Source of the DNA: Reclinomonas americana ATCC 50394
Lineage: Eukaryota
Assembly: GCA_048213135.1 (NCBI GenBank)
Contig: PS015105.1
Coordinates: 152,695 to 187,424, forward strand
DNA length: 34,730 nt
Direction: 5' to 3'
The position numbers and the translations under genes were made by a program. Position 1 is the first letter of the stretch. Each line of letters starts with the position of its first letter. Positions 1,675 to 31,774 of this stretch are shown one piece after another. The notes beneath the pieces are model-generated. The model had not been told where the DNA came from, did not search any database, and was given only the letters and a program-made list of their open reading frames with translations.

Positions 1675-1752
1675 GGAGACGGTGGCCGCTGCAAGTGATG
1701 GAGGAGAGATGAGCGGGGAGATCCAAGTGCGCGACAGTGCGGCTTAACTCAC

Positions 1753-4270: not shown

Positions 4271-6255
4271 ATGTCGAGTGTGGCTCTGGTTGCTGGCGAT
4301 GAGCACCTGCGCCGAGCCGATCTGATGACCAGTGTGCATCCCGGTCGAGTTGCGCTTCTGTCTCGTCCTTCTCTCCTACTCTTCTCGCTTGTTTTGTGGA
4401 CTCGTTGTGTGTGCAGGCGACTGCTGTGCACTCGCTGCTGCAGGCGTACGACTTGTACCGGCATGTGCGACTGTTGGACCCGGTGCTGCCGGTCACACGA
4501 CGCATGCTGGGCGAATTTCACAGTGATGACTATGTCGATCAGTTGCTGTGCAAGCGCGATGCAGATGGTATGCAACCCACATGCTGCTTGCTTGCTTGCT
4601 GGGGGAAGGAACAGGGGAAGGGGAGGAATGAGAAGGAGAGGGAGAACAGGAAGCAAAGAAGTGGGAGAGGAGAAAGGAGAAGGATGCAAGGAAAGGACGG
4701 AACGGAACGGAAATAGGAGGAAATGGAGGTAGAAGAGGGAAGCGGGGTAATGGGAGGGATGCAAACGAGAACGATATACACACTTGCTTGCGTGCAGGTC
4801 GACCCGTCGATCGCAGCGATTCGCTGTGTGGCGATGAGGAGGATCGTGAGAGGAAAGCGACGGCGGCTGGCGAGGACGTGCTGGCGTCGTTTGGGCTCAC
4901 TGGTGACACGGCGGTGTTTGCCGGACTCAATGAGTACGTGTCGACGATTGCGGGTGGCACGCTGGCGGCGGCGCGGGCGCTGATTGAGGAGCCGTCGCTC
5001 AAGGTGGCGATCCACTGGGAGGGCGGGAGGCATCACGCCAAGCGAGAAAAGGCGAACGGCTTTTGTTTTGTCAATGATGTGGTGTTGGGCGCTCTCGAGT
5101 TGCTGGCCAGCCGGCGCTTCAGTAAGAGTGCGTTTTTTTCTTGATGGTTGGTGTCCCGAGTCGCTCGCTTGTTGCTGACACGGGGCCAGTTCTCTACGTG
5201 GACATTGACATTCATCACGGCGACGGAGTGGAGGATGCATTCTATTTTTCCGACTCGGTGTTCTGCCTGTCCTTCCATCACAACTCACCGGGCTTCTTTC
5301 CTGGTTGCGTCTGTGACTGGCAGCGGCGATTGTGGAGAGAAGTCTGACGCACAGCACACGCTCACAGGCACCGGTGAATCGTGCGACGTTGGCGACGGTC
5401 GTGGTCTTGGTCACAGTTGCGCCCGCTTGCCCATGTCCATGTTACTTTCGGCCAAGATACTCATCGCCCTCTGCCCCCCACAGCGTTGAATGTGTGTCTG
5501 CCTGAGGGCATTGACGACGCAGGGTACATTGCTTGCTTCCGAAGCGCAATCAAGGTCGTCTTCAACGTGTTCCGCCCCGATGCCATGGTGGTGGTGTGGT
5601 GAGTCGATCGAAGTGTTCGTGTGCATCGCTGCAGCGCCTCACGCAATCTCTCTGCCATTCGCAGTGGGGCCGATGCACTGGCCGGCGATCCACTGGGTTG
5701 TTTCCAGCTTACGCCACAGGCGTTGTGCACGTGCGTCGAGCGGCTGCAGAAGTACCCTGCTCCCATGCTGCTTCTCGGCGGTGGCGGGTGAGTTCTCGAC
5801 ATTTCTTCCTCTTGCGCTCAACAACCATTGTTAATGCACTGAGGCATAGATATAATACTGCCAACACGGCACGGTTGTGGACCATGGTAACCGCGAAACT
5901 CGCCGGCGTCGAGATCAGCAACGACATTCCGTGCGTCCAGCCCACACGCTGTCACGATATACGTGTTCTAACATGCATTGCAGCTCGCACGACTTGATGG
6001 AACTGTACCGACCGAGCATGCTGCTGGAGGTCAAACTCGGTGCGTTCCTTCCACCCCACCCCCGCGTGTGAGCAACCGCTGCTAACAAGTGCGTCGTGCG
6101 CAGCGTACACGGCATCGGCAGAGATTCGCAAGACCGCAAGGCTGTCGACCGAAGAATCGATCGATGAGCTGCTGGATAGGTGGGAGATTGTGGAGGATGA
6201 CGCGGAGGAGGAGGCCGCGGCGGCGGAAGCAGGCAAAGACGGCAGTGACAGGTGA
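4271..6255 (+). CDS. HDAC8: Class I histone deacetylase, HDAC8-like
   Basis: 10 exons. [14 protein letters not shown] (HDAC8-type N-terminus), [54 protein letters not shown]. Catalytic His-His, Asp/His/Asp and Tyr are intact. AATAAA overlaps the TGA. Confidence 0.9.
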
Positions 6256-6294
6256 ATAAAGATTTACGCCATCCCTTCTCTACTCGGATCTCTC

Positions 6295-7529
6295 TCAAAA
6301 AGACGCCACGCCACTCCATCGCCGCACTCGCTCGTACACGAGCCAAAAGGTGAGCGACCACGGCGCCATGCGCATCCAGCACGGAATGAAACCCTGCGCT
6401 CAATGAGCAAAGAGTCACTCAATGCCCGTGTGCGTGTGCGCTACACAGACCTTCCACAGGGACCACAGGCCCTCGGAGGCGATGGTTTTTCTCAAGCAGT
6501 CCACAGAACCAGCGTACAAAAGTCCTCGGCCGTCGGGGCCGGTTGGCTGCGACGCACACGTGAGCGGAGGAGAACGCAAGAGAAGGGGAGGACGCGAAAA
6601 AACCTGGTTCATGACTCGGCTCTTGATTACATCGGCCGGGGTTCCCACTCTGCATGCACAGTCATGCATTACGCTACGAGCACGCGCGCACAGCGAGCGA
6701 CAGACATTGGAGGAGAACGCAACGAGGCGGCCACGAGACCAGCCGCAATACTCGACAGCGTGTGTGTCACCCAGTTGTCCTTGAGCGACGTATTCCGCAG
6801 AATGCGCTGCTTCACTTGATCGTAGGTCGTCAGCTCGCCGAGATTTACAAGAGCAGCTCGCTACACGTCGACAGTCAGCATCACCACCCATACACGCAGG
6901 AGCTCGGCGACCATCATCATCACCTGCACGTTGGGCACGGCGCCCTTCCACAACGCCCTCACTCCTCCCTCGCTGTAAATCACTCGATACGCCTCCCGCG
7001 AGTTCGTATAGCGTCGCGGCTTGCCCTCCAGCACCCGGCGACCATCCATCTGCATGCGCACCTTGACCAAGTCCGTGGGCGAGGCGACCATTTGCGCCGC
7101 CGCCCCACACGTCATGCCCGTCAGCATTCCCTGCCACAGAGGCACTGTTCCCGTCGACGGATCCACATGCAAGAGGTGCGTACGTGCGGCCTCGTAGAAC
7201 GAGATGCGGCAGCCAGTGTACACCAAGTGTCGCTGAATGGCGGGCGACACACCGCGCCACAACGATCGCAGTCCTTCCTCGCGAATGATGCCCACTGCAG
7301 TGCTCACCATGCCGCGTCGCATGGTCGCATGCAGTGTACCACCTACCACACAGCACTGAGCGTGACAAGCAAGAGAGAGAGATGAGGAGAGACAGTGCAT
7401 GCCTTCGCCTTGCAACTGCAATCGCGTCTTGGTCATATCCAGCGGGTACGTCACTGTCTCGGCCACAGCGGCTGAGATGGCCGACAGCACATACTTGGTC
7501 GGCAGTGGGTCGTTCTGCCCTGTCTTCAT
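6295..7529 (-). CDS. UCP4: Mitochondrial carrier, uncoupling protein 4 (SLC25A27)-like
   Basis: Three carrier signatures ([35 protein letters not shown]) plus UCP-type [18 protein letters not shown] and [17 protein letters not shown]. 5 introns, one GC-AG. Confidence 0.88.
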
Positions 7530-7572
7530 TGCACACACACACAAACAGACGCGAGCTGATTGTCTTTTTGTG

Positions 7573-9403
7573 ATGCACTCAGGCGAGCAGTACAGCTCCT
7601 TCCCCACCGCGCCTCCAGTGCCACTGGGCACACCAATAATGACACTGGAGAGCAGCTGTGTGGATGGTTGGGTGCCGCGACAGTGGTTCCCGCAGTATGT
7701 GGTCGATCAGTCGGCACTGGCAGTGCGCGTGGCGCGCGTCAACATGATCCTCTTCTCGTCGCTCTTCATTGTGGCCTTTGGTCTGCTGTTGTACTATCGG
7801 TTTCGGCAGCAGCCTACGGTCACGCATCAGGTGCGAGTGAGTTGGAGAGGGCATTGGTGATTTGATTGACCGCGCATGTTGTTGACTGCTGGCGAGTGTG
7901 AGCAGATCTTGAATCCGACTATAGACCAGTTCAATGCCATCCTCGACGAGCATCCCTTTTGCACGGTGGCGAATCCGACCATCTCTCTCGGTGCCTTTAT
8001 GGATGTCACTGGGTCGATGGACAGCATCTGCACTGCCCTCAACAACACGGCGTTACAGACGGTGTGCACTTTCTCCCTACTTCTCTTCCTCCAACCGTGA
8101 CGTTTCTCACACACTTGGGGTGCAGATGATGAATGATCCACGAAACATTGTTGCGAAACGAGCCTGCCTTGATTGCGCCTGTTGACACTCACTCATATGT
8201 GTGATGTGCAGCCGAATAATGTGGCGCGCGGTCTGCCGGCCATCTTCAACGGCATGATCATTGTGTGCGACCTGGCGACTGGCATCTTGCAGGACTTCAT
8301 CACCTCGTTTCCACTCCGCGAGTACGCGTCGACGGCGCTGTACAGCGAGCAATCGCTGCGGGTGCAGATGGCGGCACAGTTCAACGACCTGAGCAAGTCC
8401 ACGCGTCGCATTCTGCAGCAGGTGTTGCTACCGACCAATGCACTACTGGCCGTCAATATGGTAGCCACGGGCCAAGTGGTCAGCCCCGGCTCCTTCATGG
8501 ACACGAACAATCCACCACTGTACTTCGGCACGTTTGATTCGACTTGTACGTGCCTCACCAACATGTTGCGTCGGCGATGACGGTGTATGTGAGGGGAGTG
8601 TGCTGATAGCTGACTCTTGCCGTGTGCGTGCAGGAATGTGCGTTTTGTTCTGCGTCGAGTGTGTCCGTGCAGCGCATGATTAACTCACTCACTCTCCTCC
8701 CGTGCGACGAGCAGTGCGCGAAACCGATTGTGCGTTTCTTGGTTGTTGCACTGTCGCTCTGTTGCTTGACCATCATCACCACTGTGTCTGTCTGTGCGTG
8801 CAGGTTATTTACCAGACCAACGGAAGCACCCTCAATGCGACAGTGCACTGTTTCCAGATTTTGTCGCTTCTGGAACTGGATTCACAGCAGTTGTCAAACA
8901 CTGGGCTGATCTCGTCGCCATCCGCCTTCTCCAAGGTGCAAGATGCGCTCCTGGCCGGCTTTATCAAATCGCTGGAATACACGCTTGACTTTCAAAAGTA
9001 CTATGCGGTGCGTGTGACTGCATGCAGCGACGTTGTCGCGCGATCACTGACCTGTGAAATCGCTTACAACCGGACGACGCAGGCGGTGCAGCCTCTGGAG
9101 TGTCGGTACACGACTGTGGGATGGACAGTTGCGTCGCTGCAGTTTGTTGTTCATGTCGATGACTTCCTCATCGTCCGTGCGCAGATGACGGACGCCGTCA
9201 CGGTATTGCTCGGCGTCTTTGGTGGTCTCATTGGAGTGCTGCGCATTGTCGTGCCCATGCTCTCCGCACTGGTGGTGCGCTGCTGCTGCGTGCGACGCCG
9301 CCGAGAAACCTCGCTCTTCGACGCCGCCGAATCCACGCGCAAGCTGCTGCCCGACCAGCTTGCGGCTCGAGGCGGCGCAGTGGAGGCCACCATTAATCAG
9401 TAA
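7573..9403 (+). CDS. Uncharacterised membrane protein with two TM helices and a large Cys-containing luminal loop
   Basis: 9 exons splice in frame (donors 7831, 8062, 8150, 8565, 8638, 8730, 9008, 9128). TM1 [22 protein letters not shown]2 [23 protein letters not shown]. Start could be 7573 or the next ATG near 7639. Confidence 0.75.
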
Positions 9404-9526
9404 TCAATACTATACGAGTGTTTTGCGTGTTATCGCGCTGGCAGAGATTCAACGAAACGTCGTCGTTCGTCGAGTCGTCCCTCGTTGACAGGACTGCATC
9501 TTTGTGTGCCGGAAAAACCAAAACGA

Positions 9527-9721
9527 ATGTCGTCGTCGCCGCAAGGACGCGGCAAGCAGTTTGAAGAGCACTATGTGCACGCCAAGAAGGTCAGCTCGGG
9601 CAGAGCACACGCACACGCACACTCTCAGCGCGAAGAGAGAGAAAGAGCATGGCCATGTTTCTCTTGACACACACACAAGCGCACGCAGGCAAACGAAAGA
9701 GAGAAAGTATATATGTGTCTC

Positions 9722-9770
<49 letters not shown>

Positions 9771-11536
9771 TCATGTTCGATTTTCCTCATCGCATTACTC
9801 CACCAAATTCTCGCGTGCTGTCTCTCTCTCTCCCTCTCGTCCTCCTCTCGTCTGCGCGGGAGAGTTCTGCGAGACTCTCACACACACCATGATTGTTGTG
9901 CGACATCAGGTGCCACTCTCACTGGCCTCCAAGTTGTTTCTGCTGGTGGCCTCGGTGGAGCTCGGCGGTGTGCTTCTCCTCAGCATCCTACAGCTCGTCG
10001 CGCACAATCACTGTTGCGTTTGTGTCTCCGACTGGTGCAACACCTGTTCGCTCACTCGCTCGCACTGTGGTGCTATAGATGCCATGGTCTACTATGGTGT
10101 GTCCATTGCCAGCACAGCGTATGTGAGAGGATCGATCTGACGCGTTTCGTGCACAGTTGTCTTGTTGGATGTGTCGGCGGCGTTTTTGTATTACTTTGCC
10201 ATCGACTCCAGTTGTGTTTCACTCATTCATTCGTGCGTGTGTCGTTGGTGTGTTGACGACGATGGCTGATGCACGTGCGCCACAGTCATGAAGGAAAATG
10301 TGTTTGGATTAGCCGTCTTTATCACCACCTCTGTGGTGCTCTCTGTTCGGTGCGCCTGTGCCTTGGATAAGCAGTGGTTATTGTCAGTGACGGTTGTGCT
10401 CACGTGCCTCTGCGACAGCGTCTGCTACTTCTTTATCGCGGAACGGCAAGAGAACTTGGATCAGGCCATTATCGGCATTATTGTGCTGGTGTTTGTGTGC
10501 CAGGTGGTCTACTTGCCACTGACGTACTTTGCATGGAGGTCATTCGGCTGGCGCATCTTCAAGCGTTGCGTTGATTGTGTGAGTGTGAGTGTGGGGCGGC
10601 CTTGCTGGTGCTGAATGGTACAGGATGATGCATGGTGCAGGCGTCGGCAGCGACGTCAAGATGCGCCGCCGATACAAGACGTATCAGGTGTGGCTGGCCC
10701 TTGTGCGGCTCGACACACAGTTTGCACGTGCGTTTGCTCTCTCCTCCCCCCTTGTTCATATGTGACGCACGGCTAACGGTGTGCGTGATGCGGCAGTAAT
10801 CCTCACGATCATGGCCGGCTTCTTTGTCAACTATCGGTGGTTCCTGCCGGTGGTCATCTCGTGGGCCGGCATCACCGTCATTGTGACGTTCCTCGTTGTG
10901 TGCATGCTGTGATGGTGTGGACCTGTGTTGGAGTTTATGCGCTCACTCGCGCACGCCACAGATTCCGGTTGCCGTGCGTCGTGAGCGACCCTCCTTTGTG
11001 TGGGCGTTCTTCTTCTTCCAGATTGCCATGCCCGTGTACACGATCTACAAGGTGTGATGTGAGCAGTCCTATGTGCTCATCCACGCAGAGCATGACCCGT
11101 GCGCTGTGCAGCTGGTGGCCGTGTGGAACGATCCGCAGAATACGATTCATCACGTCGATCCCGACGAGCTTGCCGACATGCAAATCACCATCACGATGTC
11201 CGGTGCGTCCACAAGCTGCTCTCCGCAGTGAGGTGGCAGAGTCTCACCGTCCTCTCCTTTCTTGACACGCGCAGTGGTAATGGCACTGGTATGCCGCGCC
11301 TTCAACATGGTGTGGACGGTCTATGTGATTCGCAACTTTGGCCGTGGACTGCGGGATGTACGTGCCCCCTCATGTCTCCTGCACTGCTTTCCCACCGTCA
11401 CTCCTGCTGATTCGCATAAACACACACACAGATCTTCTTCCAGCCGGAAGAGAAGCTGCCGTTTGCCGCCACGGCGCCTCTTGCACCGAATGGGACGACA
11501 AAAGGAACGTACAGTTCGGTGAACTCGCCTGTGTAA
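9527..11536 (+). CDS. UPF0658/DUF7789-like multi-pass membrane protein
   Basis: Spliced translation contains IDSIMKENVFGL, FGWRIFKRVGSDVKMRRRYKTYQVWLALVRLD, AVRRE and NFGRGLRD, which recall the fungal UPF0658 family pattern. About 11 introns; the first exon is less certain. Confidence 0.7.
9726..9762. repeat. (CT)n microsatellite in intron
   Basis: Direct reading. Confidence 0.95.
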
Positions 11537-11665
11537 TTAGTAGTGTGGAGAGGAGAAGAAAAAATGAAAATGTTTGGAACGAGTTTTGATACGCGCGGCC
11601 CGTGTCCATTTCTCTCGCGAAACAAAAAAGAGGCAGCAATAAAGAAAACTCACGCACTCTCACAC

Positions 11666-14185
11666 TCACACTGCCGCCAGAAGCACATCTAGATTCTTCT
11701 CCAACGCCAGCTGCTCCACAATGCGGCCCGTGGCCTCGCCAGCCGTCTGCAGCGCCACTTGCGAAATATTCTGAATTGTGTCGCAGTCCTGGTGGTAGCA
11801 CTGCAGATAACGCACGTCAGCGAGACGGAGGAGGGAGAGGGGTACGCACTCTACACGCATCGCACCGGATCAAAGGCGGTCTTGGCCATGCCGCCGTACA
11901 GGCTGCGCAGCTCCATGTTCTTGACGCCCTCGGCGCCCGTCTCGAATCCGCTCGCAGGAATGCCCTTGGCAATGAAGGGGCCGTAGTCGGAGCGGCCATT
12001 GAAGTCGGTGGGCGTCGAGGTGTGGTTGAACGACATCAGTGCGTTCTGGAACATGCGCTGTAACCCAACATTCACATCGTCAGGCCAGAAGAAGAAGAGC
12101 TGCTCGCATGCGATTTCGGTCCACACCTGCAGAATGCTGCTGCCGACCTTGACGTCGTCGGGACCCGACGAGCCATTGTACACGCCGTAGAAGAAATTGG
12201 GCGAGGCCACCATGTCGAAATTCAGGTTGAGCGCAACGCGATTGAGAGTGCCGTCGGCCTCCAGCTTCTTGACGTACTCGGTCGAGCCCACCAAGCCAAT
12301 CTGTGTCGCCCAGAAACGGTAAGCGAGAAGGGAAAAGAGGGAAGGAAATAGGGTGAAGGAAAAGGGGCGACGGAAAAGGGAAGGAAAGGAGAGAAGGAAA
12401 GGTGAGGGAATGGGGAAACAAGGCATAAACAGACACGCGCGCTCTCGAAATGAGTGTGTGAGCGTGCGTGCGTGCGTGCGTGCGTGTGTGTGTACACACA
12501 CCTCCTCGGCACCCCAGAAGCCAAAGCGGATGCGGTTCACGGGTACCAACTTGGACTGCGCCATGCTGATGGCAACTTGCAGGTTCAGCGATGTACCTTT
12601 TCCGCACAAGTAGGAGTGAGAAACAGGAGAACAGTGACCGGTGCCGTGGATGACAATTCCTCACCGGAGCCATTGTCGTTGATGCCAGGACCGGCGGGCA
12701 CCGAGTCCAGGTGAGAGCCGAGCACAATGACACGATCGTCACGACCGGCGTCTGCAGTGCACGCCCGTGAGTTTCAGTTCGTCAGGAGCGTGAGGAGAAC
12801 AGCAGGGGACAACGGAACTTGTCTCGGCAATCACATTGCACGTCTGCTGAACGGAGAAGCGCGTCGAAGCCGCGATACGCACGTGCACGGGTGTGCCCAT
12901 GGACAGAGCCACCACCCACGAGCTGCCGAGTGCGTATGGGAGCGCCAGCACTGGCACCGGTTCGTACTCGCCAATCGTGCCGGAGAAGAGACCCTTGCGA
13001 TCGTCCGAGTTGCCCTCGTTGTAGATCAGCACGCCCTTCACTCCAGCACGCACCGCTGCCGCGCACTACTCACCCCACAATGAGACACGTCGATCACATG
13101 CAAGCGTTAATCTTGCACACGACATCACCTTCTCCTGGAACGTGCAGGTTCCACGCTTGATCAGCGCAATCGTGTCGACATTCTTGGGGAACGCCGCAAA
13201 GTTGTCGTCCACACAACCGTACGAATCGGCGGCCACCAGCGGGGCGGTCACATTGCCGGAGCCCTGCATGCATTGAGAAGAAAACGGCGCAAACAGAGAG
13301 AGACGGATCGCCGAGTTACCGAGTACGACAGCCACGTGAAATCGGTCTTGTACACGAGTGCCTTCTCCGCCGGCATCACTTGCTCCAACTCTGGATCCGC
13401 CAGCGGCTTCCATCTGCAGATGGCCATCTCTAAGAGGGACACGCGCATGCAGTGGACGACTCACACGGCACGCATGCAATCAAACGCAACACTGGCACCG
13501 TAAAGTTCTGTAACATGACCGAATAGTCGGGCGCATACGTGCGCAACGTCTGCAACACATACTGCACACTGGCATCGTAGCCAGGCGTGCCCACTGCGCG
13601 TGTGCCACCATTGGCCAGCGCGGCACTCTGCAGTGCATTCAAGTGTCCCATCATGCCCTCCCGAGTCACCAGCGTCCACAACGGAGGTCGCTCCACCTCT
13701 GGTGGCGGTGCCGTGCGATCGGGCAGTCGCGTCAGCATCGTGATGAAGATGGCCACGGTCGCCACCAGTGAGATGGCGGTCACAGAGAGCGCAATGTTGA
13801 ATCGTCGTCGCCACTGCAGAAGTGAGAGAGTGTGTGAGGGCCTGTCTCGTCACAGTGTATGTGTGCGTATCAGTGTGTGTGTGTGTGTGCGTGTGTGTGT
13901 GCGTGTGTGTGTGTGTGTGCATCAGTGTCATTCATGTGTCTCAAGAACGCACTCGTTGCGGTGATGCATTATTCCACGAGCTGTCATCGTACTTGACCGC
14001 CACCCCAGAGCTGAGAGTTGAGTGAGTGTGAGAGACAAGTGAGAAGCGCGCGCGAAAACATACATGTGAGTTGAGCTCACAGAAAAAGTGATTCTCTCGT
14101 TGTCAACTCACCGCATCTCATCGTTGGCGAGCAACTGCCCGCTGTCTGCAGGGCTGGTGGCCGCAGAAGACTCACCAGAACGCAT
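11666..14185 (-). CDS. M28 family aminopeptidase with PA domain and N-terminal TM anchor (aminopeptidase Y/SGAP-like)
   Basis: GTRAVGTPGYDASVQYV; PA domain IALIKRGTCTFQEK; SHLDSVPAGPGINDNGSG; FWGAEEIGLVGS; LNFDMVASPN; RSDYGPF; DPCYHQDCD. Zinc ligands are present. Confidence 0.92.
13873..13920. repeat. Imperfect (GT)n microsatellite in intron
   Basis: Direct reading. Confidence 0.9.
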
Positions 14186-14407
14186 GTTTTTCAATGAGGC
14201 GGGACAATGCGGACAGTTACTGGCTGCCACGTCACGGGTGTTCTGTCCCAAGCGTTGTTGTGTTTTTTTGGCGCGCATACTCTGCAAAGACACACAGCAC
14301 ACACACGCCCGCCCGCGCGCATTTTGCAAGTTTGTAGAGAGGACTCGCCTCTGTGTTTGTGCGTGCACGTGTCTGTGTGAGTGGTGAGAGAGTAAGAACC
14401 GCCAACC

Positions 14408-19109: not shown

Positions 19110-19148
<39 letters not shown>

Positions 19149-22100
19149 CTGGGCCGCGTGTTTAGTGTGCGCCTGGCTCACGCACTCGCGCCGCATTAGG
19201 TGACAAGCACGGCCGATTTCGAGTGGAGCTCGCAGCTGCGCTACTACTGGAGGGAGAAGGATCTGTACATTCAGCAGGTCGAGGCCAAATTCATCTACGG
19301 CTACGAGTACCTCGGCAACACCATGCGCCTTGTGATTACGCCGCTGACCGATCGTATCTACCTCACCCTCACTGGTGCCCTGCATTTGCACCTCGGTGGC
19401 GCTCCTGCCGGCCCTGCCGGTACTGGCAAGGTGCGGAACGACGAGTTTCCTCGCTGAACAGTGGAGAGACGGAAACTCACCGATTTTTTTGTTGGTTCTG
19501 CAGACGGAGACGACCAAGGATTTGGCCAAGGCCATGGCCAAGCAGTGTGTCGTGTTCAACTGCCAGGAAGGCCTGGACTATCTGGCCATGGAGAAGTTCT
19601 TCAAGGGACTGGCTATGGCTGGTGCATGGGCTTGCTTCGACGAGTTCAACCGTATCGACGTCGAAGTGCTGTCTGTCGTCGCTCAGCAAATCACCGAGTT
19701 GCAGCGTGCCATCTCTCTCGGACTGGCGCAAATTCAGTTCGGCTCGTCGATCATTCGTGTCGATCCCTCGTTTGCCGTGTTCATCACCATGAACCCCGGT
19801 TACGCTGGCCGGTACGTGATGCTTGGCCTGTCGTTGAGTTCCCCGCCGAATACCATTGACTCATTTGCCCCCTGCAGTACCGAGCTGCCCGACAACCTGA
19901 AGGCGCTGTTCCGCCCCGTCGCGTGCATGGTGCCCGATTACGCTCTGATTGCCGAAATCCGTCTGTTCTCGTTCGGTTTCGTCGACGCCTACCGCCTGGC
20001 GCGTAAGATGGTCGCCACTTTCCGCCTCTCATCCGAGCAGCTGTCCAGTCAGGATCACTACGATTTCGGCATGCGCGCTGTGACGACTGTCATTAACGCC
20101 GCCGGTCTGCTCAAGCGTGATGATCCGAACGGTGAGTCGCGAGGAGGGGGTATTTATCTATTGGTCAGTGTGCTGATTTTACGACAGGCAATGAGGAGCT
20201 GCTGCTGCTTCGTGCGCTGCGCGATTCCAACTTGCCCAAGTTCCTCACCGACGATATCACCCTGTTCAACGGTATCATTAGCGATTTGTTCCCGGGTGTC
20301 AACTTCCCGGAGCCCGACTACGAGAACCTGCTGCGCGGCATCAACAATGCGCTGGTGCACTTCAACCTGCAACCGGTGCCTGGTTTCATTGAGAAGACGC
20401 TGCAGTTGTACGAGATGACGGTGTTGCGCCACGGCCTCATGCTTGTCGGTCCAACCGGTTCTGGCAAGACCATGTGCTACAAGGTCCTGCAGCGGTGAGT
20501 GGAGAGATACTGCTGCGACTCCCCCCTTAATCATACTGGAGACGATCCACTCACACTTCCGCCATGTTGTTGTGCAGTGCCTTGACGGAGCTGTGCGATT
20601 TGCCGCGCTACGAAAAGGTCAAGACCTTTATCCTCAATCCCAAGTCCATCACCATGGACCAGCTGTATGGTGGCTCCGACCCCATGACGCACGAGTGGAC
20701 CGACGGCATTATTGCAGTGTTGCGTACAGCTCTTTACTGGTGCCTGTGACTTCTTTCATCTATGATGCTTAAAACCACACTCGCCATCAGGCTGTTCCGC
20801 AAGGCCGTGCGTGACGATTCGCCCGACAAGAAGTGGATCATTTTCGACGGACCAGTCGACGCGCTGTGGATCGAGTCCATGAACACGGTGCTGGACGACA
20901 ACAAAAAACTGTGCTTGGTCAGTGGTGAAATCATTTCGCTGTCTCCCGAAATGACCATCATGTTCGAGGTGGAGGACTTGGCCGTCGCCAGCCCTGGTGA
21001 GTGACGCCTGTTCCCTGTCTATATCTTTGGTGGTGATTGTCACTCACTAATGCGCGCGCGCAGCTACGGTGTCTCGCTGCGGTATGGTGTACCTGGAGCC
21101 CATCATGTGTGTCGGCACTCAGGCGCAAGTGACGTCGTGGCTCAACACACTGCCGGAGGTCCTCAAGCCCTTCCGTCAGCAGCTGCAGGAGCTGTTCGAC
21201 TACTACATGGACGACGCGCTCACGTTTGTGCGCCGTAACTGCTCCGAGTACATTCCGTCGGTGCCCAACAACCGCACGGCCTCGGTGTTCCGCCTGCTGG
21301 ATTGCTTCTTCGACAAGGTTTGTGAGATTTGTTGGCTGCGCTGCGCGTTGGGTGGTTTCGTGCGCCTCAACCTGTTTTTTCTTGTTTGCCAGTTTATCGA
21401 GCGAGAAGGCGTGCCGCGCCCGCAGGCTCTGATTGACCAGCTCGCGCGCATGGTGGAGCCGCTGTTCTTGTTCTCGCTGGTGTGGGGCGCTGGCGGTTCG
21501 GTCGATGGCAAGTCGCGCACCATGTTCAATGAGTACATGCGCGGTCGCATGCGCTCCAAGGGCGTGCGCATGCCGATTCCAGAGGCCAAGAGCGTGTACG
21601 ACTGGCTCTTTGTGGAGGACACGTGTGAGTGGAAGGCGTGGATGGAGACTGAGCCTGAGTTGCGTCACTTGTCAAGGAAATGTGTGTGTGGCGAGGGTTT
21701 TCCTGATTGATGGTTGCCTGTGCAGATTTGTGCTCGACCCGAAGACCCCGTTCCAAGACATTATCGTGCCCACCACCGACACCATCCGCTACAAGTGGCT
21801 GCTGCAGCACCTGTGCACTCATGGCAAGCACATGATTGCCATTGGTCCGACCGGTACCGGCAAGACCTTGACGCTGCAGGTTGGAAATACACGTTTATGT
21901 TTGTACCATGCATGCGCGCTGACTGGCTTGGCTTGTGTTCGTGCAGGACAAACTGATGAGGGGCATGCCGGAGAGCTTTGTGCCAATCTTTATCAGCTTC
22001 TCTGCGCAGACGTCTGCCAACCAGACGCAGGACATTCTCGACGGCAAGTTCGAGAAGCGCCGCAAGGGTGAGTTTGCATGCAGTGGGCGCGAACCATCTC

Positions 22101-25100
22101 TTGCGCCTGGCACTCACGTGCGTGCTCTTTCCCTTTCGCAGGCGTGTTTGGCCCGCTGCCGGGTCAGAACTTCACCATCTTTGTCGACGACTTGAACATG
22201 CCTGCTCGTCAGCAATACGGTGCGCAGCCGCCCATTGAGCTCATCCGTCAGTGGCTCGACCACGGTGGCTGGTACGATCGCAAGTTCCCCGACGATACGC
22301 CTTTTATGCGCATCATCGACGTCAACTGGGTCGGCACTCTCGGACCGCCTGGTGGCGGTCGTAACCCGGTCACCAACCGTATGCTGCGCCACTTTAACTT
22401 TATCACCTTCCCGGAGATGAGCGACGAGTCCATGACGACTGTGTTCAGCACAATTCTCGGTGCGTGATGCGGGAAGAGCGCAAAAGAGAGAGGGACACTC
22501 ATTCCTCGTTGTGTAGGCACGTACCTTTCGGCCTACTTCCCGCCGGAGCTCGGAGCCATGTGCAAGAACATTGTCGAGGCTGCCGTCACGTTGTACAACA
22601 CCATTGTGGAGGAGTTGCTGCCGACGCCGTCCAAGTCGCACTACACGTTCAACTTGCGTGATCTGGCCAAGGTATGTTCCTAAAGCGGATGGTGGTGTGA
22701 GTCGCGCAAGTCGAGCCGCTAATATCTCTCTCACACACACTCCAGGTGTTCCAAGGCGTGCTGATGGGCGACCCGAAGACAGTGGGCGACAAGAAGGCGT
22801 TGCTGCGCCTGTGGGTGCACGAGTCGCAGCGTGTGTTCCGCGATCGTCTGGTCGACAACATCGATCGCAAGTGGTTCGACGATCAGACCGAGAAGCGGTG
22901 CGTGTGCTTCTGTCCCCCCCGTGAACTCCGCGTGATGGTCGTACTCATTTTGTGTGTCTGTATGTTGTTGCGGCTGTGCAGTCTTCGCAGCTACTTCAAT
23001 CTGGGATACAACGATCTGGGTGCCGCCGAGCGCCTGCTGTTTGGTGACTTTATGGTGCCGGGCGCCGATCCGCGCATCTACGTGGAAATCAGCGACCTCA
23101 ATCACTTGAAGTCGGTTCGTTGTCTGCGGACCTCCCAGAGTGTGTACGTGTGTGTGCACGACCTCATCCACGCTCGCAGGTGCAAGAAGAGTACATGGAA
23201 ATGTACAACGCCGTCAACTCGAAGAAGCCACTGACGCTGGTGCTCTTCTTGGACGCCATTGAGCACGTCGCGCGTATCTCGCGTGTGTTGCGCCAGCCGG
23301 CCGGCAATGCCCTTCTGCTTGGTGTGGGTGGCTCTGGTCGTCAGTCGCTGACGGCACTCGCCGCGTTCATGTCGGACTACAAGGTGTTCCAGATCGAGGT
23401 GAGTGTGTGTTGACGCGAGAGGAGAGAGACCGTGGTGGCGCTGAATGGGTTTCGTTTCCGCAGATTACCAAGAGCTACAGTGTCGCCGATTGGCATGAGA
23501 ACATGAAGACACTGCTGAAGGCCGCCGGTTGCGAAGGCCAGCAGATGGTGTTCCTGTTCTCCGACACACAGATTGTGTACGAGTCGTTCCTCGAGGACAT
23601 TAACGGCATTCTCAACTCTGGTGAGGTGCCGAACCTGTGGGAGGTCGCCGATCTGGAGGAGATTTACGGCGCCATGCGTCAGATTCTTGCCGCCGCCAAC
23701 GAGCCGGTGCGTTGACGTGCTTACTCACCCGATGCTCGCATTTGTTGCGCACAATGCTGACTGACTGTGTGCGTGTGTGGGGGTGCAGATTTCCAAGATC
23801 AGCATGATGGCACGCTTCAACAAGCGTGTGAAGCAGAATCTGCACATTGTGCTGGCCATGAGCCCTGTCGGCGAGGCCTTCCGCAACCGTCTGCGTATGT
23901 TCCCGTCGCTGGTCAACTGCTGCACCATTGACTGGTTCTCGGCGTGGCCCGATGAGGCTCTGCGGTCGGTCGCGGTTGCGCAGCTTGGCGACGTGCGCCT
24001 GGACGACTCGCTCAAGCACAACATTGGCGAGATGTGTGTGAACATTCACCAGAGTGTCGAGGAGATCAGTGTCAAGTTCTTGGCCATTCTGCGCCGCCAC
24101 AACTACGTGACGCCGACCTCGTATCTGGAGCTGCTGTCGACCTTCAAGACGCAGCTGGCGACGCAGTCGGATGCTCTCGGCAAGCAGAAGCGCCGCTTCA
24201 CCGTTGGTCTCGACAAGCTCATGTCGACCGAGGTGCAAGTCAATGACTTGAAGGTGTGTCACAACAGCAAGTCCCTGATTGTCCTGCATGATACTCAAAC
24301 TATCATATGTGTGTGCTGTGCAGGACGATCTCGTGCGCATGCAGCCGAAGCTTATCGAGACGCAGAAGCAAGTCGACGAGCTGATGGTGCAAATCGCTCA
24401 CGATACCGAGGAAGCAAGTTGCGTCGATGTGCACAGGTTGTCGGTGACAAGAGCATGGACTGATGAGAACATTGTTTCTACGCAGAGGCCACCCAGGAAA
24501 TTGTGCTGAAGGATGAAGCCGAAGCCACGGCCAAGAAGGAGGAATGCGAAAGCATCAAGGCATCTGCCGAGGCCGAGCTGTCCGTCGGTGCGTACTCTTG
24601 TTGATCGGCAATCGCCATGTTATGCTGTTGATGTATTTGTATGCTGACCTGTTTCCTTTGTGCGTAGCCTTGCCGGCTCTCGAAAAGGCGCTGGTGTCGC
24701 TGAAGGATCTGAAGGTCAATGATATTACTGAGGTCGCCAACTACACCATTCCGCCGGCTCTTGTGAAGACAACGCTGGAAGCCGTGTGTATCATGAAGAA
24801 GGTGCCGCCGAAGATGGTCGGCGAAGTCGGTAAGAAGGTGGCCGACTACTGGGACAATGCCAAGGAAATGCTGAAGAAGGCCAACTTGGTGGGTGGCGAT
24901 TGCTTCTGTTTTTCCTCACGCCGCTGTTGTTTTTGCTCATGTACGTATGTGCGTAGTTGCGTGACGAAATGATCAACTTTGACCGCGACAACATCCCCGA
25001 GGCCATCATCGTCAAGGTGCAACCGTACATTGACAACCCACAGTTCGTGCCCGACCAAGTCGCCAAGAGCTCCAAGGCTTGCACGGCCATGTGCGCCTGG

Positions 25101-25655
25101 GTGCATGCCATGTACAACTACCACCACACCAACAAGAAGTTGCGTTTGTCTGACACTTAATGGGGGTGTTGGAATAAGCAGGCACTCATGACGTATGTGC
25201 GTGTGTGCAGGATCGAACCGCTGCGTGAGGCTCTGGCCAAGGCGCAGGCCGAGCTCGACATTGTGATGGCCAGTTTGGCCAAGACCAAGGCCAAGCTGAC
25301 CGATGTGGAGAACAAGCTTGTCGATCTGCAGCTGCAGTACGACGAGAATGTGGCCAAGAAGGAGGAGCTGGAGCACCAAGTCGAGATGTGCACCAAGAAG
25401 CTGGACCGCGCCGAGCGTCTGATTGGTGGTCTCGGCGGTGAGAAGACTCGTTGGCAGGAGCAAGTGGTGCGCTTGGCGATTGCCGAGGCCAACATTGTCG
25501 GTGACGTCGTGTTGGCCTCTGGTGCCATTGCGTACGCCGGTCCGTTCACGGCCGTGTACCGTGCCGAGCTGTACCAGCAGTGGCGCTCCAAGTTGGCAGA
25601 ACTGGGGTACGTTGTCGCCAGCGTCTTTGCAAGTGGCATGTCCGTTTGTGTCTGA

Positions 25656-25688
<33 letters not shown>

Positions 25689-28368
25689 NNNNNNNNNNNN
25701 NNNNNNNNNNNNNNNNNNNNNNNNNNNNNNNNNNNNNNNNNNNNNNNNNNNNNNNNNNNNNNNNNNNNNNNNNNNNNNNNNNNNNNNNNNNNNNNNNNNN
25801 NNNNNNNNNNNNNNNNNNNNNNNNNNNNNNNNNNNNNNNNNNNNNNNNNNNNNNNNNNNNNNNNNNNNNNNNNNNNNNNNNNNNNNNNNACAGAGGAGAG
25901 GGGAAAGGGGAAGGAGGACAGAGGAGAGGGGAAAGGGGAAAGGACGACAGATGGAGGGCTTGTGTGATGTCTTCACTTGCTGTCTGTGTGGTGTCGTGTG
26001 CGTGCACTCCCGCTGTGGATGTTCTCGTGCGCGTGCGTGTCTGTGTGTGCGTGTCTGCGTGTTTGTGACTCTTGATCTCTCTTGCTCTCTTCCTCTCTCA
26101 GTTCAGGTATCCCGTGCGTGTGCGTGCTACATGTCTGGCTGGTTATTTTTCTCTATCTCATTCTTATTGTTCTTGCTGCTCCATTCACGTATTTGTTCCG
26201 GTCAATGTGCCTCACTCAATGTTGTATCGTGTTCACGTACGCTTTTGTCTAACTCCGGCCCTCTTGCATCGTCACAGTTCCCGGTCAGTGTGCTGCAGAA
26301 TGGCGTCAAGATGACCAACGAGCCGCCCAAGGGCCTGCGTGCCAATGTGCGCTCCACGTACCAGCGCTTCACCGACAAGTTCATGGAGCACTCGAAGATG
26401 TCGCAGCTGAAGCGTGTGCTGCTCGGCTTTGCACTCTTCCACGCCGTCATTCAGGAGCGCCGCAAGTACGGCCCACTTGGCTGGTGCGTAGATTGTTGGC
26501 GGTGGAGAGAAATAATGAGACGGTCGCCACTCACTCGCCAATCGTGCAGGAACATTCGCTACGAATTCACCACTGGTGACATGCTCTGTGGTGTGAGCCA
26601 GCTGCGTCTGCTGTTGGACCAGTACGAGGAGCCGCCATACAAGGTCATCAAGACCCTCGTCGGTCACATCAACTATGGTGGTCGTGTGACAGACGACTGG
26701 GATCGCCGCGCGCTGATGACGCTGCTCGACGGTGTGTATTGCCACTCGTCCCCCCATTTGCATGGCTCGCATTGACTCACCATTGTCTGTGGCTGTGCAG
26801 ACTTTGTTGGCGCGAAGCAGCTGGAGCTCGGTTACCAGTACACCCCGGTGCCAGAGTACTATGTGATTGAGAAGGAGACACAGCGCGAGTACCTCGACTG
26901 GATCCAGGAGCTGCCGATCAAGGCTGGTACGTGACGGGGACAGCGATGTGGTGCAATGCATTGGTTGTGTAGATTACGGTGCTCAACCTCCACACACAGA
27001 CCCGCAAGTGTTTGGTCTGCATGAGAATGCCGATATCACTTGTGCGCAGGCCGAGTCGTACGGCATGCTGGAAACGATTCTCTCACTGCAAGCACGGTTC
27101 GTGTGTGTGTGTGTGTGTACGCCTGCATAGTGTGTGCTGCCAAAGGCACTCAACTGTGCTCGTCTCCTTCGCCTCCACAGTGTGGCCACCAGCGGTGGAC
27201 GCACACGCGAGGATGTGATTGGTGAGACCGCCAAGGAGATCCTCGACCGCCTACCGCCTGCATTCGACATTGAAATGGTGGCGGCCAAGTACCCGACGAC
27301 GTACACGGAAAGCATGAACACTGTGTTGTTGCAGGAGGTGTGTGTTGCCAGCTGTTTGTGTTGACATGTATGTGTGTGTGTGAGTTACTCACTGTTCCCT
27401 TCGCGCCACACGCACACAGGCCATTCGTTACAACCGACTGATTATCATCATGAAGAAGACGCTGCCGGAGCTGCTCAAGGCTCTGAAGGGTCTGGTGGTC
27501 ATGAGTGAGCAGCTGGAGAAAATTGCCAGCGGCATCTTTATCAACCGCGTTGCGTCACCACCGTCATCGTGCTATCGACCAGATGGCCATTGCGCTCATT
27601 TCTATCTGTGCGTTTGTGCAGGTGCCTGTGGCTTGGGCGGAGAAGGCGTATCCGTCACTCATGCCTCTCGCCTCGTGGTACGAGGATTTGTTGAAGCGTC
27701 TGCAATTCATTCAGGTGCGCCGACCGTAGCTTGTGGCTGACATCGAGGTCAAAGGTTACTGACTGACTGTATTCTTGTTTGTGACAGTCGTGGTACGACC
27801 ATGGCNNNNNNNNNNNNNNNNNNNNNNNNNNNNNNNNNNNNNNNNNNNNNNNNNNNNNNNNNNNNNNNNNNNNNNNNNNNNNNNNNNNNNNNNNNNNNNN
27901 NNNNNNNNNNNNNNNNNNNNNNNNNNNNNNNNNNNNNNNNNNNNNNNNNNNNNNNNNNNNNNNNNNNNNNNNNNNNNNNNNNNNNNNNNNNNNNNNNNNN
28001 NNNNNNNNNNNNNNNNNNNNNNNNNNNNNNNNNNNNNNNNNNNNNNNNNNNNNNNNNNNNNNNNNNNNNNNNNNNNNNNNNNNNNNNNNNNNNNNNNNNN
28101 NNNNNNNNNNNNNNNNNNNNNNNNNNNNNNNNNNNNNNNNNNNNNNNNNNNNNNNNNNNNNNNNNNNNNNNNNNNNNNNNNNNNNNNNNNNNNNNNNNNN
28201 NNNNCTAGAAAGGAAGAGAGAGAGAGAGAGATGGTGGATGTTCATGGATATGATAAACGAGTGACTGACGATCTCTTCCTTGTGTGCCCTCTGCAGTTGC
28301 CATCGGCGCAACCCGACAGCCACTGGATCAAGCGTGGTGTGGCGTTGTTCTGTGCACTAGACTTTTGA
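14408..28368 (+). CDS. DNAH1: Axonemal inner-arm dynein heavy chain, DNAH1-like; interrupted by three assembly gaps
   Basis: N-terminal [14 protein letters not shown]-loops [41 protein letters not shown]; coiled-coil stalk and MTBD; C-terminus [15 protein letters not shown]. More than 40 introns; first coding exon is ATG only. Confidence 0.93.
17344..17557. other. Assembly gap inside dynein gene
   Basis: N run. Confidence 0.99.
19112..19146. repeat. (GT)n microsatellite starting at the intron donor
   Basis: Direct reading. Confidence 0.9.
25658..25889. other. (GT)n run into assembly gap (N 25689-25889) inside dynein gene
   Basis: GT repeat followed by N run. Confidence 0.97.
27806..28204. 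other. Assembly gap inside dynein gene
   Basis: N run. Confidence 0.99.
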
Positions 28369-28479
28369 GCTGTAGTTTGTTTTTTTGTGTTTTTTCCCCA
28401 TACTCTGTTTATGCAAACAAAGAAAAAGTGTACACATTTTCCCCCCTTTCATTAGTTGTGCATTGATGATGATTGATGA

Positions 28480-29776: not shown

Positions 29777-29815
<39 letters not shown>

Positions 29816-30412
29816 AATGGAAAAGGGACGAAGCATGCACGCAGAGAAGGAGCGGAGCAGAGAACAAGTGAAGGAGAAGCAGACAGAGAGGAGAAGGGAC
29901 AGAAGTATGACCAGAGAGGTGAACAAGCAGAGAACGGCACAGAACGGCACAGAAGGGGAGAAGGCGAGGAGAAGAAGGGAGAAGAAGGATAGAAGCATAA
30001 AAGCAGAGAAGGAAGAGCCAGAACAGATCGACACAGAAAGGAGAACGACAGAGGAGAAGAAGAAGATGTGAGAGAATGACAGAAACCAACAAGCAGGCAT
30101 GCGACAGGCACACCGCTGACGCAACTTGCCACGCGACGACTCCTACGATGCGCATATGTGTCCAAGAAAAAGCACGGAGAGACAAAGATTCGATGTTGGT
30201 GGACAGCGACACACACACAGACGCAGGAACAAGCACACACCTTGGACTCTTGAATGAGGAGCATGCGTCCTTCATCGTCCTTGATGATGCACGACACGAT
30301 CAGGCGTCTGCGCACACGCACACACGCACAGTCAGGTTGTCATGAGTGACAGGAATGATTGGGGCGACGACGGATTCGGCAACCCGCCGCCTTGTTGCCC
30401 ATCAATGCGGTC
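28480..30412 (-). CDS. Nudix hydrolase NUDT18 (8-oxo-dGDP phosphatase)-like with degenerate Nudix box; 5' end unresolved
   Basis: RLIVSCIIKDDEGRMLLIQESK-ESSRGK-WYAPAAQVNVGETFPDAAIRCCKAEAG...WLRIAVTGKLTGGTLKTIEEADLDSLQASWF parallels the NUDT18 motifs LLIQEAK/WYLPAG/TGGILKT/ESLQAAW. Confidence 0.75.
29160..30070. repeat. Degenerate purine-rich (plus strand) minisatellite in the 1.1 kb Nudix intron
   Basis: Recurring blocks GAAGCATGCAAGCAGAGAAGGAGCGGAGCAGAGAAC(A/G)AGTGAAGGA and GAGGAGAAGGGACAGA, with a (GA)n run at about 29784-29812. Confidence 0.8.
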
Positions 30413-31045
30413 GCCTCGCGCAAAGAGAATCGCATCCACGAGCGTATCACACACATATACACATACACACACGAGGAGCACACGAGCACAGGAAAAGGGA
30501 GGAGGAGGAGGAGGAAGAGGGAGAGAGGAGTGTATCACGAACACACAAAGGCAACAGAGAAACGCAACACTCGATGCATGGTGTGTTGGAAAAACTGGGA
30601 GACAGCCGGCTGAGCGAGCGAGAGAGTGAGAGAGTGTGTGAGTGGCGCAGACAGCGAAGAGAGAGAGAGAGAACACAGGGCGTGTCCGCGCTGTGTTTTG
30701 TGTGTGTGCGCGCAGAGTCACAGTGTGCGCAACTGTGGAGAGAGCACTGGTGCGAGAGTCAACGAGCGCGGAAGGTGTTGAAGGGGTGGTGTGCGATGAA
30801 AGAAAGCAACGAGAGCAGAGCAACGAGTGCGCACAACACGTGAGCGACTGATTGATTGATTGGTGCGTTCGAAGTCTCGGATCCGGACGCCTTGCGAAGG
30901 CAGCGCTGTGCTTATCCCTGCGCCACAGTGCAGATGCATCTAACGAAGCGTCACCCCGAATAATGTCCACATCTCCATTCTCTGTACACTCATTTTTCTA
31001 CGTTTTTTCAACCTTGTTGCATTGCAAGTCGGGTCCCGTCCTCGT

Positions 31046-31774
31046 TTACACCGCAATGGCCTGCGTTCCGTGGCCCACGCTGCTCTTCAACACCTTGCGC
31101 AGGTTGGCAAGCAGCTGCGGGAATTTCGGGGAAATGAGCACACGCGCAGAGGGTGTTATCAAAATGAAGAGGCACTTGTCACGACGCAACGTTGTAGTGG
31201 AAGTCAAAGTACTCCTCAAAGGTGATCTTGCCGTCGTGGTTGGCGTCCAGCTCGCTGTGGATGGCCAAGCGTTTGCGTGAGCGAGTGAGAGAGACTGAGA
31301 GAGCAGAGAGTGAAAAACGCACGAAAAGTGCTTGTTCACGTGCTCCTCCTGATCCGGCGTCAGCGCGCTGGCGCTGCTCTGCTTGGTCCAGTAGTTGGCA
31401 AAGAGGCGACGCTGTGACACACAACGCGTACGTGGTGGTGTGTGAGAGACGCCACAGTCACACACACACATTGTTGTCGCGCGCACGACGTACCAGCTCA
31501 GCGATTTCGAGCGTCTGGTTGCGGTCGGCGTCGATGAGGTCGAACTCCATGCGGCAGTCGCTCTTCAGGCGCTGTTTTGTGCGGTGGGAGAGGTGAGAAG
31601 GGATGATGTGCGGCACGCGTCGTGGAGAGGAGGAGAAGAAAACGCAACGTCAACGTTGGTCAGCTGCTCGTCGAGCCATTGGATCTGCGTGGTGAGAGGT
31701 GAGGGGGTGAGAGAGAGAGAGAGGGTGGCGAGTGGGAAGGTGGGAGAGGGAGACGAAACGTAAGCGTCAGACAT
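31046..31774 (-). CDS. Small two-EF-hand calcium-binding protein (~115 aa)
   Basis: 6 exons give MSDAYIQWLDEQLTNVDRLKSDCRMEFDLI-DADRNQTLEIAE-...-DANHDGKITFEE-YFDFHYNLLANL...AIAV*, with two 12-residue EF loops. Confidence 0.85.

Follow-up and report, generated by a model that had tools for sequence, protein, structure and literature searches.

An extra-T class of 5' splice sites coupled to the last exon base in four genes of Reclinomonas americana

Results and discussion

Two donor classes and the last exon base

We analysed the 5' splice sites (donors) in a stretch of 34.7 kilobases (kb) of DNA from Reclinomonas americana ATCC 50394 (contig PS015105.1), an intron-rich eukaryote; this whole stretch, of about 56% G+C and with four assembly gaps, is called the window below. 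Supported donors numbered 54 and came from four genes, encoding a dynein heavy chain, HDAC8, a RagC-like GTPase and a mitochondrial carrier. We denoted as N (normal) the donors with G at +5, as S (extra-T) those with T at +3, G at +6 and no G at +5, and as O those that are neither, which gave 38 N, 14 S and 2 O donors, the extra-T class thus making up about 26% of the total. At the level of sequence, the two main classes are strictly coupled to the base that ends the exon (-1) and are related to each other by a register of one base. G is found at -1 in 35 of the 38 N donors and in one of the 14 S donors, where this base is A 8, C 3, T 2 and G 1 (the G only at 5304; Fisher's exact p = 1.1e-8, S versus N). 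Both O donors, 15350 GTACTG and 6923 GTGATG on the minus strand, have -1 G. The best available explanation, to which we give a probability of roughly 0.55, is that the same donor motif is read one base further downstream in the extra-T class.

Table 1. Extra-T donors. Fractions with denominator 25 denote queries for the N-terminal part of the dynein, 5 full-length homologues for its core, 12 queries for its C-terminal part, 19 HDAC8 homologues and 10 intron-free homologous open reading frames (ORFs).
4349..4355, plus strand, GTTGCGC, -1 A, phase 0, HDAC8 intron 4349-4416; 7/19, those reaching the N-terminal junction
5304..5310, plus strand, GTTGCGT, -1 G, phase 1, HDAC8 intron 5304-5367; 17/19
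5416..5422, plus strand, GTTGCGC, -1 A, phase 1, HDAC8 intron 5416-5483; 17/19
6717..6723, minus strand, GTTGCGT, -1 C, phase 2, carrier intron 6723-6650; alignment to UCP1 (8g8w_A) with no residue missing
16331..16337, plus strand, GTTTCGT, -1 A, phase 2, dynein intron 16331-16408; 9/25, the best-supported choice, also ab initio
16649..16655, plus strand, GTTGCGT, -1 T, phase 2, dynein intron 16649-16725; 17/25
16897..16903, plus strand, GTTGAGT, -1 A, phase 2, dynein intron 16897-16974; 18/25
17147..17153, plus strand, GTTGCGT, -1 C, phase 0, dynein intron 17147-17228; weakly supported (donor 2/25, acceptor 13/25), also ab initio
17827..17833, plus strand, GTTGCGT, -1 A, phase 2, dynein intron 17827-17908; 5/5, 10/10
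20719..20725, plus strand, GTTGCGT, -1 T, phase 2, dynein intron 20719-20790; 5/5, 10/10
21659..21665, plus strand, GTTGCGT, -1 A, phase 2, dynein intron 21659-21725; 4/5, 10/10
24418..24424, plus strand, GTTGCGT, -1 A, phase 1, dynein intron 24418-24485; 3/5, 10/10
25139..25145, plus strand, GTTGCGT, -1 A, phase 2, dynein intron 25139-25210; 5/5, 10/10
27549..27555, plus strand, GTTGCGT, -1 C, phase 0, dynein intron 27549-27621; 11/12

The coupling persists in a strict subset of donors that most queries selected in one run or more, where -1 G is found in 29/32 N and 1/10 S donors (p = 4.5e-6). It is also seen in every intron phase: for phases 0, 1 and 2, -1 G is present in 16/18, 11/12 and 8/9 N donors and in 0/3, 1/3 and 0/8 S donors, respectively. 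As -1 is the second codon position in phase 2, the value of 8/9 does not reflect ordinary coding bias. In the dynein alone 29 of 30 normal donors have -1 G, the exception being 18795, and HDAC8 contributes the two other normal donors that lack it (Table 2).

Table 2. Normal donors without -1 G.
5128..5133, plus strand, GTGCGT, -1 A, HDAC8; 16/19 (the alternative 5122 GTAAGA has -1 A too)
5931..5936, plus strand, GTGCGT, -1 C, HDAC8; 11/19
18795..18800, plus strand, GTGCGT, -1 T, dynein; 5/5 (4/5 with acceptor 18859), 10/10

A preliminary description of this DNA had listed 25 shifted donors preceded by A 10, T 7, C 7 and G 1; our recount of sense GTTG[CA]G sites within 4349-31648 gives 26, preceded by A 10, T 8, C 7 and G 1, and the only G is again at 5304. 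Thirteen of these sites are supported donors, 12 are known from the motif only, and one (18590) is probably not used. The association between -1 base and donor class that the description had proposed was borne out within the window by the counts given above. As exceptions among normal donors it had named 18795, which stands, and 16331, which with its GTTTCGT falls in the extra-T class; the form of that class is thus GTTNNGT, wider than GTTG.

The extra-T consensus is near-invariant, with GTTGCGT in 10/14, whereas the 38 N donors are degenerate and show 14 different hexamers. All 14 S donors read GTTNNG(T/C), where G at +6 (14/14) follows from the class definition and T or C occupies +7 in 14/14. 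The window holds 23 copies of GTTGCGT against 7.5 expected, a number reached by none of 100 shuffles, and 29 copies of GTTG[CA]GT, 26 of them sense to the host gene and 3 antisense. S and N introns are alike in length (median 72 versus 70 nucleotides, nt) and in composition. The normal donors favour C at +4 (20/38) and G at +3, giving GTGCGT, which is unusual for standard U1 pairing.

Register of the motif

In order to separate the effect of the T from that of the register, normal donors that also begin with GTT can be compared with the extra-T class (Table 3). G is found at -1 in 5/5 GTT donors having G at +5 and in 1/14 having G at +6 (p = 5e-4). This suggests that the register of the downstream G-T, and not the T itself, sets the -1 base.

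Table 3. GTT donors with G at +5, all with -1 G.
326..331, plus strand, GTTTGG, RagC-like intron 326-387; Pfam Gtr1_RagA profile passes from 40 to 43 over the junction
21318..21323, plus strand, GTTTGT, dynein; 10/10, 1/5, and query P0098 too
21880..21885, plus strand, GTTGGA, dynein; 3/5, 10/10
23115..23120, plus strand, GTTCGT, dynein; 4/5, 10/10
27097..27102, plus strand, GTTCGT, dynein; 6/12 with acceptor 27180, 1 with 27192

Moved by one base, the S donors give the normal 7-mer, but with T in place of the normal +1 G, and the composition of their -1 position resembles that of N -2 (p = 0.40) and not that of N -1 (p = 6e-7). With this shift they match the U1-binding consensus, the +1 G standing in for the -1 G and G-T lying at +6/+7. 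Judged from the letters, both classes fit one heptamer, G-[G/T]-T-R-N-G-T, that would be cut just before its first GT. The first G of the heptamer would be the last exon base in N donors (G/GTRNGT, where the slash marks the exon-intron boundary) and the first intron base in S donors (/GTTRNGT), so that in the latter the exon could end in any base. Since the required G may be exonic or intronic, at a fixed distance from G-T, the reader most likely acts before the cut site is fixed.

Such an early reader of the 5' splice site would most likely be the 5' end of U1 snRNA (small nuclear RNA), C9 to A3, which is a natural candidate because it spans exactly the seven heptamer positions. It would bind the 7-mer at a constant spacing from the downstream G-T, and the later catalytic steps (U6, U5 and Prp8) would cut directly 5' of the first GU in the 7-mer. 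We infer that U1 is the reader and that cleavage is reset later. Extra-T donors may then serve intron positions where coding bars a G at the exon end, and the T may be a compensatory solution for exons not ending in G. The +1 shifted register of rare human sites would here occur as a major class, in 14/54 donors. The part of the preliminary description that concerned composition, namely the heptamer register and the likeness of S -1 to N -2, is upheld by these comparisons; its energetic part is not supported with textbook U1, as described below.

Support for the donors

Gene models were rebuilt with a protein-to-genome spliced aligner that used BLOSUM62 and GT-AG introns only (GC-AG being penalised), and that was blind to the donor motif, as the bases around GT were not scored. 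Five full-length dynein homologues were used as queries for the dynein core, the 25 best-matching homologues for its N-terminal part, 12 homologues with matches for its C-terminal part, and 19 HDAC8 homologues for HDAC8. An independent dynein set consisted of uninterrupted ORFs from marine metagenome contigs (10 of the 16) in which the same dynein is encoded free of introns. Each of the five extra-T introns in the core was found with 10/10 of these ORFs, and once the 27 core dynein introns are removed a frame of 2005 codons opens, the other two frames having 51 and 47 stops. For the RagC-like gene, Pfam profile coordinates are continuous over three junctions (2-40, 43-106, 109-129, 133-196). 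The carrier exons flanking intron 6723-6650 align to UCP1 residues 186-229 and 232-275, residues 230 and 231 being supplied by the final residue of the exon and by the codon that the intron splits, and Pfam Mito_carr resumes at profile position 23 after this intron; the preceding carrier intron, 6923-6861, ends in an in-frame stop.

Table 4. Normal donors, plus strand.
RagC-like gene: 326, 579, 715
HDAC8: 4568, 5128, 5599, 5788, 5931
Dynein, first part: 15651, 15978, 17616, 18310, 18581, 18795, 19112, 19431, 19812, 20132, 20495, 20997, 21318, 21880, 22068
Dynein, second part: 22460, 22672, 22898, 23115, 23399, 23707, 24254, 24588, 24889, 26484, 26732, 26927, 27097, 27338, 27715

The donor table leaves out the genes for the permease, the M28 peptidase and the unnamed membrane protein as well as the EF-hand gene. 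Of the 27 core introns, 21 to 24 were found by ab initio models based on codon usage, whose donors were left uncounted; elsewhere these models gave 6893 for 6923, 338 for 326, and a pseudo-exon of 5 nt in the M28 gene. The 'introns' 15526-15567 (42 nt, 4/25), 6040 (1/19) and 15152 (ab initio only) were discarded, as was every gap seen with a single query. Ambiguous junctions were kept at 19112 versus 19160 (5 versus 5 intron-free ORFs), 22898 versus 22904, and 18581 versus 18590. The last of these is a pair of tandem in-phase candidates:
18581..18596, plus strand, 18581 GTGTGT (-1 G) and 18590 GTTGCGT (-1 T)
The first is preferred over the second by 5/5 full-length homologues and 10/10 intron-free ORFs, and an exon end at 18581 also agrees with P0125, a read-through ORF from a close relative, so that judging by these alignments 18581 is probably the donor in use, not 18590. 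Three further GTTG[CA]G matches were rejected as donors: 19833 sits within intron 19812-19877, 20423 within the AAA2 P-loop exon, and at 24956 the first G belongs to an acceptor AG.

Metagenome records touch several of these introns. Four 151-nt records from a pond have 0-3 differences from the window (17819-20007), and the other pond records came from other organisms. The near-identical records suggest that the organism or a close strain lives in fresh water. The record over 17819-17966 covers donor 17827 with no difference listed in the motif; all three of its differences fall in intron 17827-17908. Two metagenome contigs of other organisms join over exactly 66 nt of intron 19812-19877, which independently confirms that intron.

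U1 pairing energies

The standard U1 5' end is ACUUACCUG. We paired each donor to AUACUUACCUG in three fixed registers (canonical, shifted and bulged) with ViennaRNA, a set-up that reproduces the published values of three control oligos (-15.2, -12.6 and -6.5). For N donors the canonical register has a median of -6.8 kcal/mol and is the best in 35/35. In model sites, cag/GUGCGU gives -8.3 and caa/GUGCGU -1.7 kcal/mol, so -1 G is worth about 6.6 kcal/mol, which would account for its near-obligatory presence in N donors. The model caa/GUUGCGU stays at about +0.4 to +0.5 kcal/mol in every register, and cag/GUUGCGU reaches -6.1 in the bulged one. With textbook U1, therefore, the extra T brings no calculated gain over a normal donor without -1 G. 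The preliminary description had expected the shifted register to be more stable than the canonical one and had taken equal stability as evidence to the contrary; the calculated shifted duplex is not clearly the more stable with textbook U1 (the organism's own U1 may differ), and on paper, as the extra T buys nothing, the result is of the contrary kind. Textbook U1 being near 0 kcal/mol in all registers, recognition here relies either on a U1 that differs or on proteins. With a hypothetical C8A U1, the shifted median is -3.8 for S donors and the canonical median -1.3 for N donors.

Points against a register shift

Several observations weigh against a shift of register. For the 13 S donors of the homology set, textbook U1 gives a canonical median of +0.9, a shifted one of +0.3 and a bulged one of +0.5 kcal/mol, and the shifted register is the best in just 8/13, the bulged one in 5/13. 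The fifth heptamer position is C in 13/14 S and 20/38 N donors (51%; p = 0.009, from a 39-row table with a misplaced 6933), and A there would pair better with textbook U1. The -2 base of S donors is G in 6/13, which does not fit pairing with G11 of U1. The depletion of G before the motif is itself modest, 1/29 against a local background of 63/327 (19%) before other GTTG (binomial p = 0.016); the strong contrast is with the 92% -1 G of normal donors. As for coding as the reason, phases 1-2 hold 11/14 S and 21/38 N donors (a count only), with a phase difference that is probably not significant, and a synonymous -1 G is possible at two of the three phase-0 S donors (codons read by eye). The uncounted ab initio permease model has an S donor with -1 G (3202, GTTTCGT) and an N donor with -1 A (1864). 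Finally, the GT-AG rule was assumed, and homology cannot separate a boundary pair from the same pair slid by one base: the GT...AG boundaries of the 14 extra-T sites were set by reading frame and homology, which a one-base slide fits equally. The basis throughout is 34.7 kb and four genes.

Alternative explanations

The energies leave room for a dedicated or altered U1 with A opposite the extra U (position 8) and maybe further changes matching GCGU, pairing in the shifted register; it may coexist with standard U1, the extra-T donors being its substrates. It would meet the difficulty that textbook U1 is at about 0 kcal/mol in every register, since the C8A change favours S donors over N donors, and it would suit a rigid S consensus beside degenerate N donors. 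There are precedents: in Entamoeba and Mastigamoeba the pairing region of U1 is reported to be changed in a way that matches atypical donors, and for Physarum both standard and modified variants of U1 are reported (bioRxiv 10.1101/2022.06.08.495308, as far as the available part of that account goes). According to the same part, the U1 of Thecamonas and of Micromonas is standard although C is preferred at +4. The proposal is purely inferential for this organism, and a scan of the window with Rfam gave 0 matches, no U1 gene lying within the 34.7 kb. In view of the rigid consensus and the C8A energies we keep a second or altered U1 as a possibility, though a tentative one. Put as two modes of U1, and held just as tentatively, the standard form would serve G/GTRNGT and a second or altered one (A opposite the extra U, perhaps GC opposite GC) would serve /GTTGCGT.

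Pairing with a bulge seems doubtful. Here U1 would pair canonically at +1/+2 (C8, A7), one U of +2/+3 would be bulged, and pairing would resume at GCGU; the absence of -1 G would be non-functional, sites with -1 G drifting to the simpler GTGCGT. This register is known in humans, where the projected number is 68 among 201,541 sites and curation leaves 54 (PMC4856993 Table 3, from the part available). U6 must tolerate the extra base under any model, and the bulged register is the best by energy in the five donors mentioned above. It predicts, however, a benefit from -1 G at least as large as in normal donors (cag/GUUGCGU -6.1 versus caa/GUUGCGU +0.5 kcal/mol), and the bulged duplex without -1 G is at about 0 kcal/mol. 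Sites of this kind pair on both sides of the bulged U with -1 G as an anchor, which just 1/14 of the donors and 1/29 of the motif sites possess. That a base which would greatly stabilise a bulged S donor is avoided speaks against a plain bulge.

It is very improbable that the class is a by-product of origin, in which a younger intron family (introner-like or of specific insertion) with its own GTTGCGT end landed where the exon end was not G. The very uniform heptamer would agree with it, as would the relative P0121 (78% protein identity), which has no intron at the position of 17827. The median local alignment score, however, is 7 alike for pairs of extra-T introns (78), of normal introns (561) and for mixed pairs (442), the two classes do not differ in length or composition, and no terminal repeats were noted in these introns; no interior similarity beyond the splice signals was found between them that would mark introner-like elements.

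We give almost no credence to an artefact of the gene models, in which GTTGCGT sites would be misassigned boundaries: 12/26 motif sites are known from the motif only and the ab initio models are wrong at some junctions (6893 versus 6923), but the aligner used GT/GC-AG and protein similarity alone, four independent query sets give the same boundaries, the motif has a strand bias of 26 sense to 3 antisense, and the 2005-codon frame opens only with these boundaries. U12-type (minor) introns, whose donor motif is /RTATCCTT together with a matching branch site, were rejected, as all 14 S donors read GTTNNG(T/C) and the branch motifs of the core dynein introns are alike in the S and N classes.

Relation to known splice sites

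Shifted-register 5' splice sites were reportedly described by Roca and Krainer in 2009 (NSMB 16:176), and bulge-register sites are said to have been described by Roca et al. in 2012 (Genes Dev). Both kinds of register are experimentally established in human cells (PMC4856993), and all non-canonical registers together make up about 2.1% of 201,541 human sites (PMC4856993; PMC9311317), according to the available parts of these papers. In the human shifted-register sites, as these parts describe them, all U1 pairs are displaced by one base with the +1 G opposite C9, the cut is still at the true GU, and the exon end need not be G, as we propose for the extra-T donors. They differ in being rare and atypical and in relying on long complementarity downstream; for the oligo ACA/GUCAAGUAUA, used as a test, the value is -6.5 kcal/mol (PMC4856993, available part), which was reproduced here. 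The class in the window, in contrast, comprises 14/54 donors of a fixed GTTGCGT form with almost no calculated gain from the shift (textbook U1). With the bulge +2/+3 register our donors share the extra U straight after GU and the pairing that resumes 3' of it; the human register profits from -1 G, according to the portion of the literature seen here, whereas the S donors of the window are without it.

The normal donors of the window (GTGCGT, GTGCGC, GTGAGT) resemble the GTGCGY consensus of Mastigamoeba, Thecamonas, Mamiellales and Entamoeba, lineages that also give precedent for U1 changes tracking donor changes; the available part of that account, however, mentions no inserted-T donor class or coupling to -1 (bioRxiv 10.1101/2022.06.08.495308). 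A trade-off between exonic -1/-2 and intronic positions, with compensation on the U5 and U6 sides, is likewise described in the available part of PMC10581693; it is a matter of strength within one register, whereas in the window the whole motif moves by one base. A literature search brought up no account of a donor class GUUGCGU or GUUGAGU, although supplementary files may hold donor logos of other protists. Among the matches listed, those for GTTGCGT together with intron were of primer type only, and those on shifted or bulged registers named no lineage with such a donor class.

Fourteen of the 54 donors, then, seem to carry a U1-type motif one base off the cut, with the last exon base dictating the choice. 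If this is true, the genome offers a natural genome-wide experiment on how the cut site is fixed after U1 leaves, to our knowledge an open question of splicing that has so far been studied with a few rare human sites and reporters. In this lineage, a gene finder trained on G/GTRAGT would give wrong scores to one donor in four. As the thermodynamic leg fails for textbook U1, the organism's own U1 would be decisive. Should a matching U1 variant exist, it would be a clear case of co-evolution of snRNA and splice site within a single genome; and should there be two U1 modes, about a quarter of major-type introns would be defined by a register-shifted snRNA variant, which would amount to a natural uncoupling, on the scale of a genome, of U1 register from the choice of cleavage site.

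Motif-only sites, genes of the window and other observations

Genes were placed in the window by Pfam and homology searches (Table 5). The permease gene gave no match in the homologue search, and for the unnamed membrane-protein gene neither a homologue nor a Pfam family was found.

Table 5. Genes of the window.
1-1000, plus strand, RagC-like GTPase (Pfam/homology)
about 1750-3960, minus strand, NCS1-type permease (Pfam/homology)
4250-6260, plus strand, HDAC8 (Pfam/homology)
6420-7560, minus strand, mitochondrial carrier (Pfam/homology)
7600-11300, plus strand, unnamed membrane protein
11650-13500, minus strand, M28 peptidase (Pfam/homology)
about 13900-27800, plus strand, inner-arm axonemal dynein heavy chain (Pfam/homology)

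Table 6. Candidate extra-T sites known from the motif only. The -1 base is given in parentheses.
8150..10571, plus strand, five sites of the membrane-protein gene: 8150 (t), 8565 (t), 9128 (a), 10013 (t), 10565 (c)
13484..14023, 13490 on the minus strand (t, M28 peptidase gene); on the plus strand 13955 GTTGCGG (c) and 14017 GTTGAGT (a, dynein 5' region)
30119..31648, minus strand, four sites: 30125 (a), 30568 (t), 31190 (c), 31648 (c)

Each of the five sites in the membrane-protein gene has, among the listed candidates, a YAG acceptor 57-76 nt to its 3' side; this acceptor is the best-ranked one for four of the five, and for 10565 the best is 232 nt away. Position 31191 is the exact end of an ab initio exon that is EF-hand-like, and 31190 and 31648 have acceptors 76-77 nt to their 3' side.

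Introns are 53-88 nt long with the single exception of 230 nt, the HDAC8 intron 4568-4797, which is GA-rich and three times as long as usual; for its ambiguous acceptor, 2/19 queries choose 4797 and 6/19 choose 4857. The acceptors of the 49 homology-supported introns are CAG (43) and TAG (6). CTNAY-like branch motifs occur in the 27 core dynein introns and are the same in both donor classes.

The marine metagenome homologues of the dynein (16 loci, L001-L016, about 52% identity, 10 of them translated) are uninterrupted ORFs of 3256-4733 codons, so the intron density of this gene must differ enormously between lineages. Two close relatives, P0121 and P0125, were present in the protein libraries. 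The ORF of P0125 (about 84-90% identical) continues through two in-frame introns, one of 54 nt and one of 66 nt, which sit where the window has introns 18310 and 18581; P0121 runs straight over the position of extra-T intron 17827 with a deletion of 2 residues. At the assembly gap 25689-25889 (window 25600-26270) the dynein alignment skips, in the numbering of the full-length homologues, from around residue 3100 to around 3745, which indicates that some 650 codons are absent from the scaffold. On the 3' side of the dynein gene, 28200-30300 has a strong purine skew (GC skew 0.31, AT skew 0.41) and GA-rich repeats, and its long ORFs look like low-complexity translation rather than genes.

In the unnamed membrane-protein gene, the first long exon is closed by tandem in-phase donors at 7831-7842, cag/GTGCGA and, 6 nt further on, cga/GTGAGT, the choice between which is ambiguous. 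Downstream of them, 8126-8149 is a possible micro-exon of 24 nt, with an acceptor at 8125, the GTTGCGA site at 8150 and a good acceptor at 8211.

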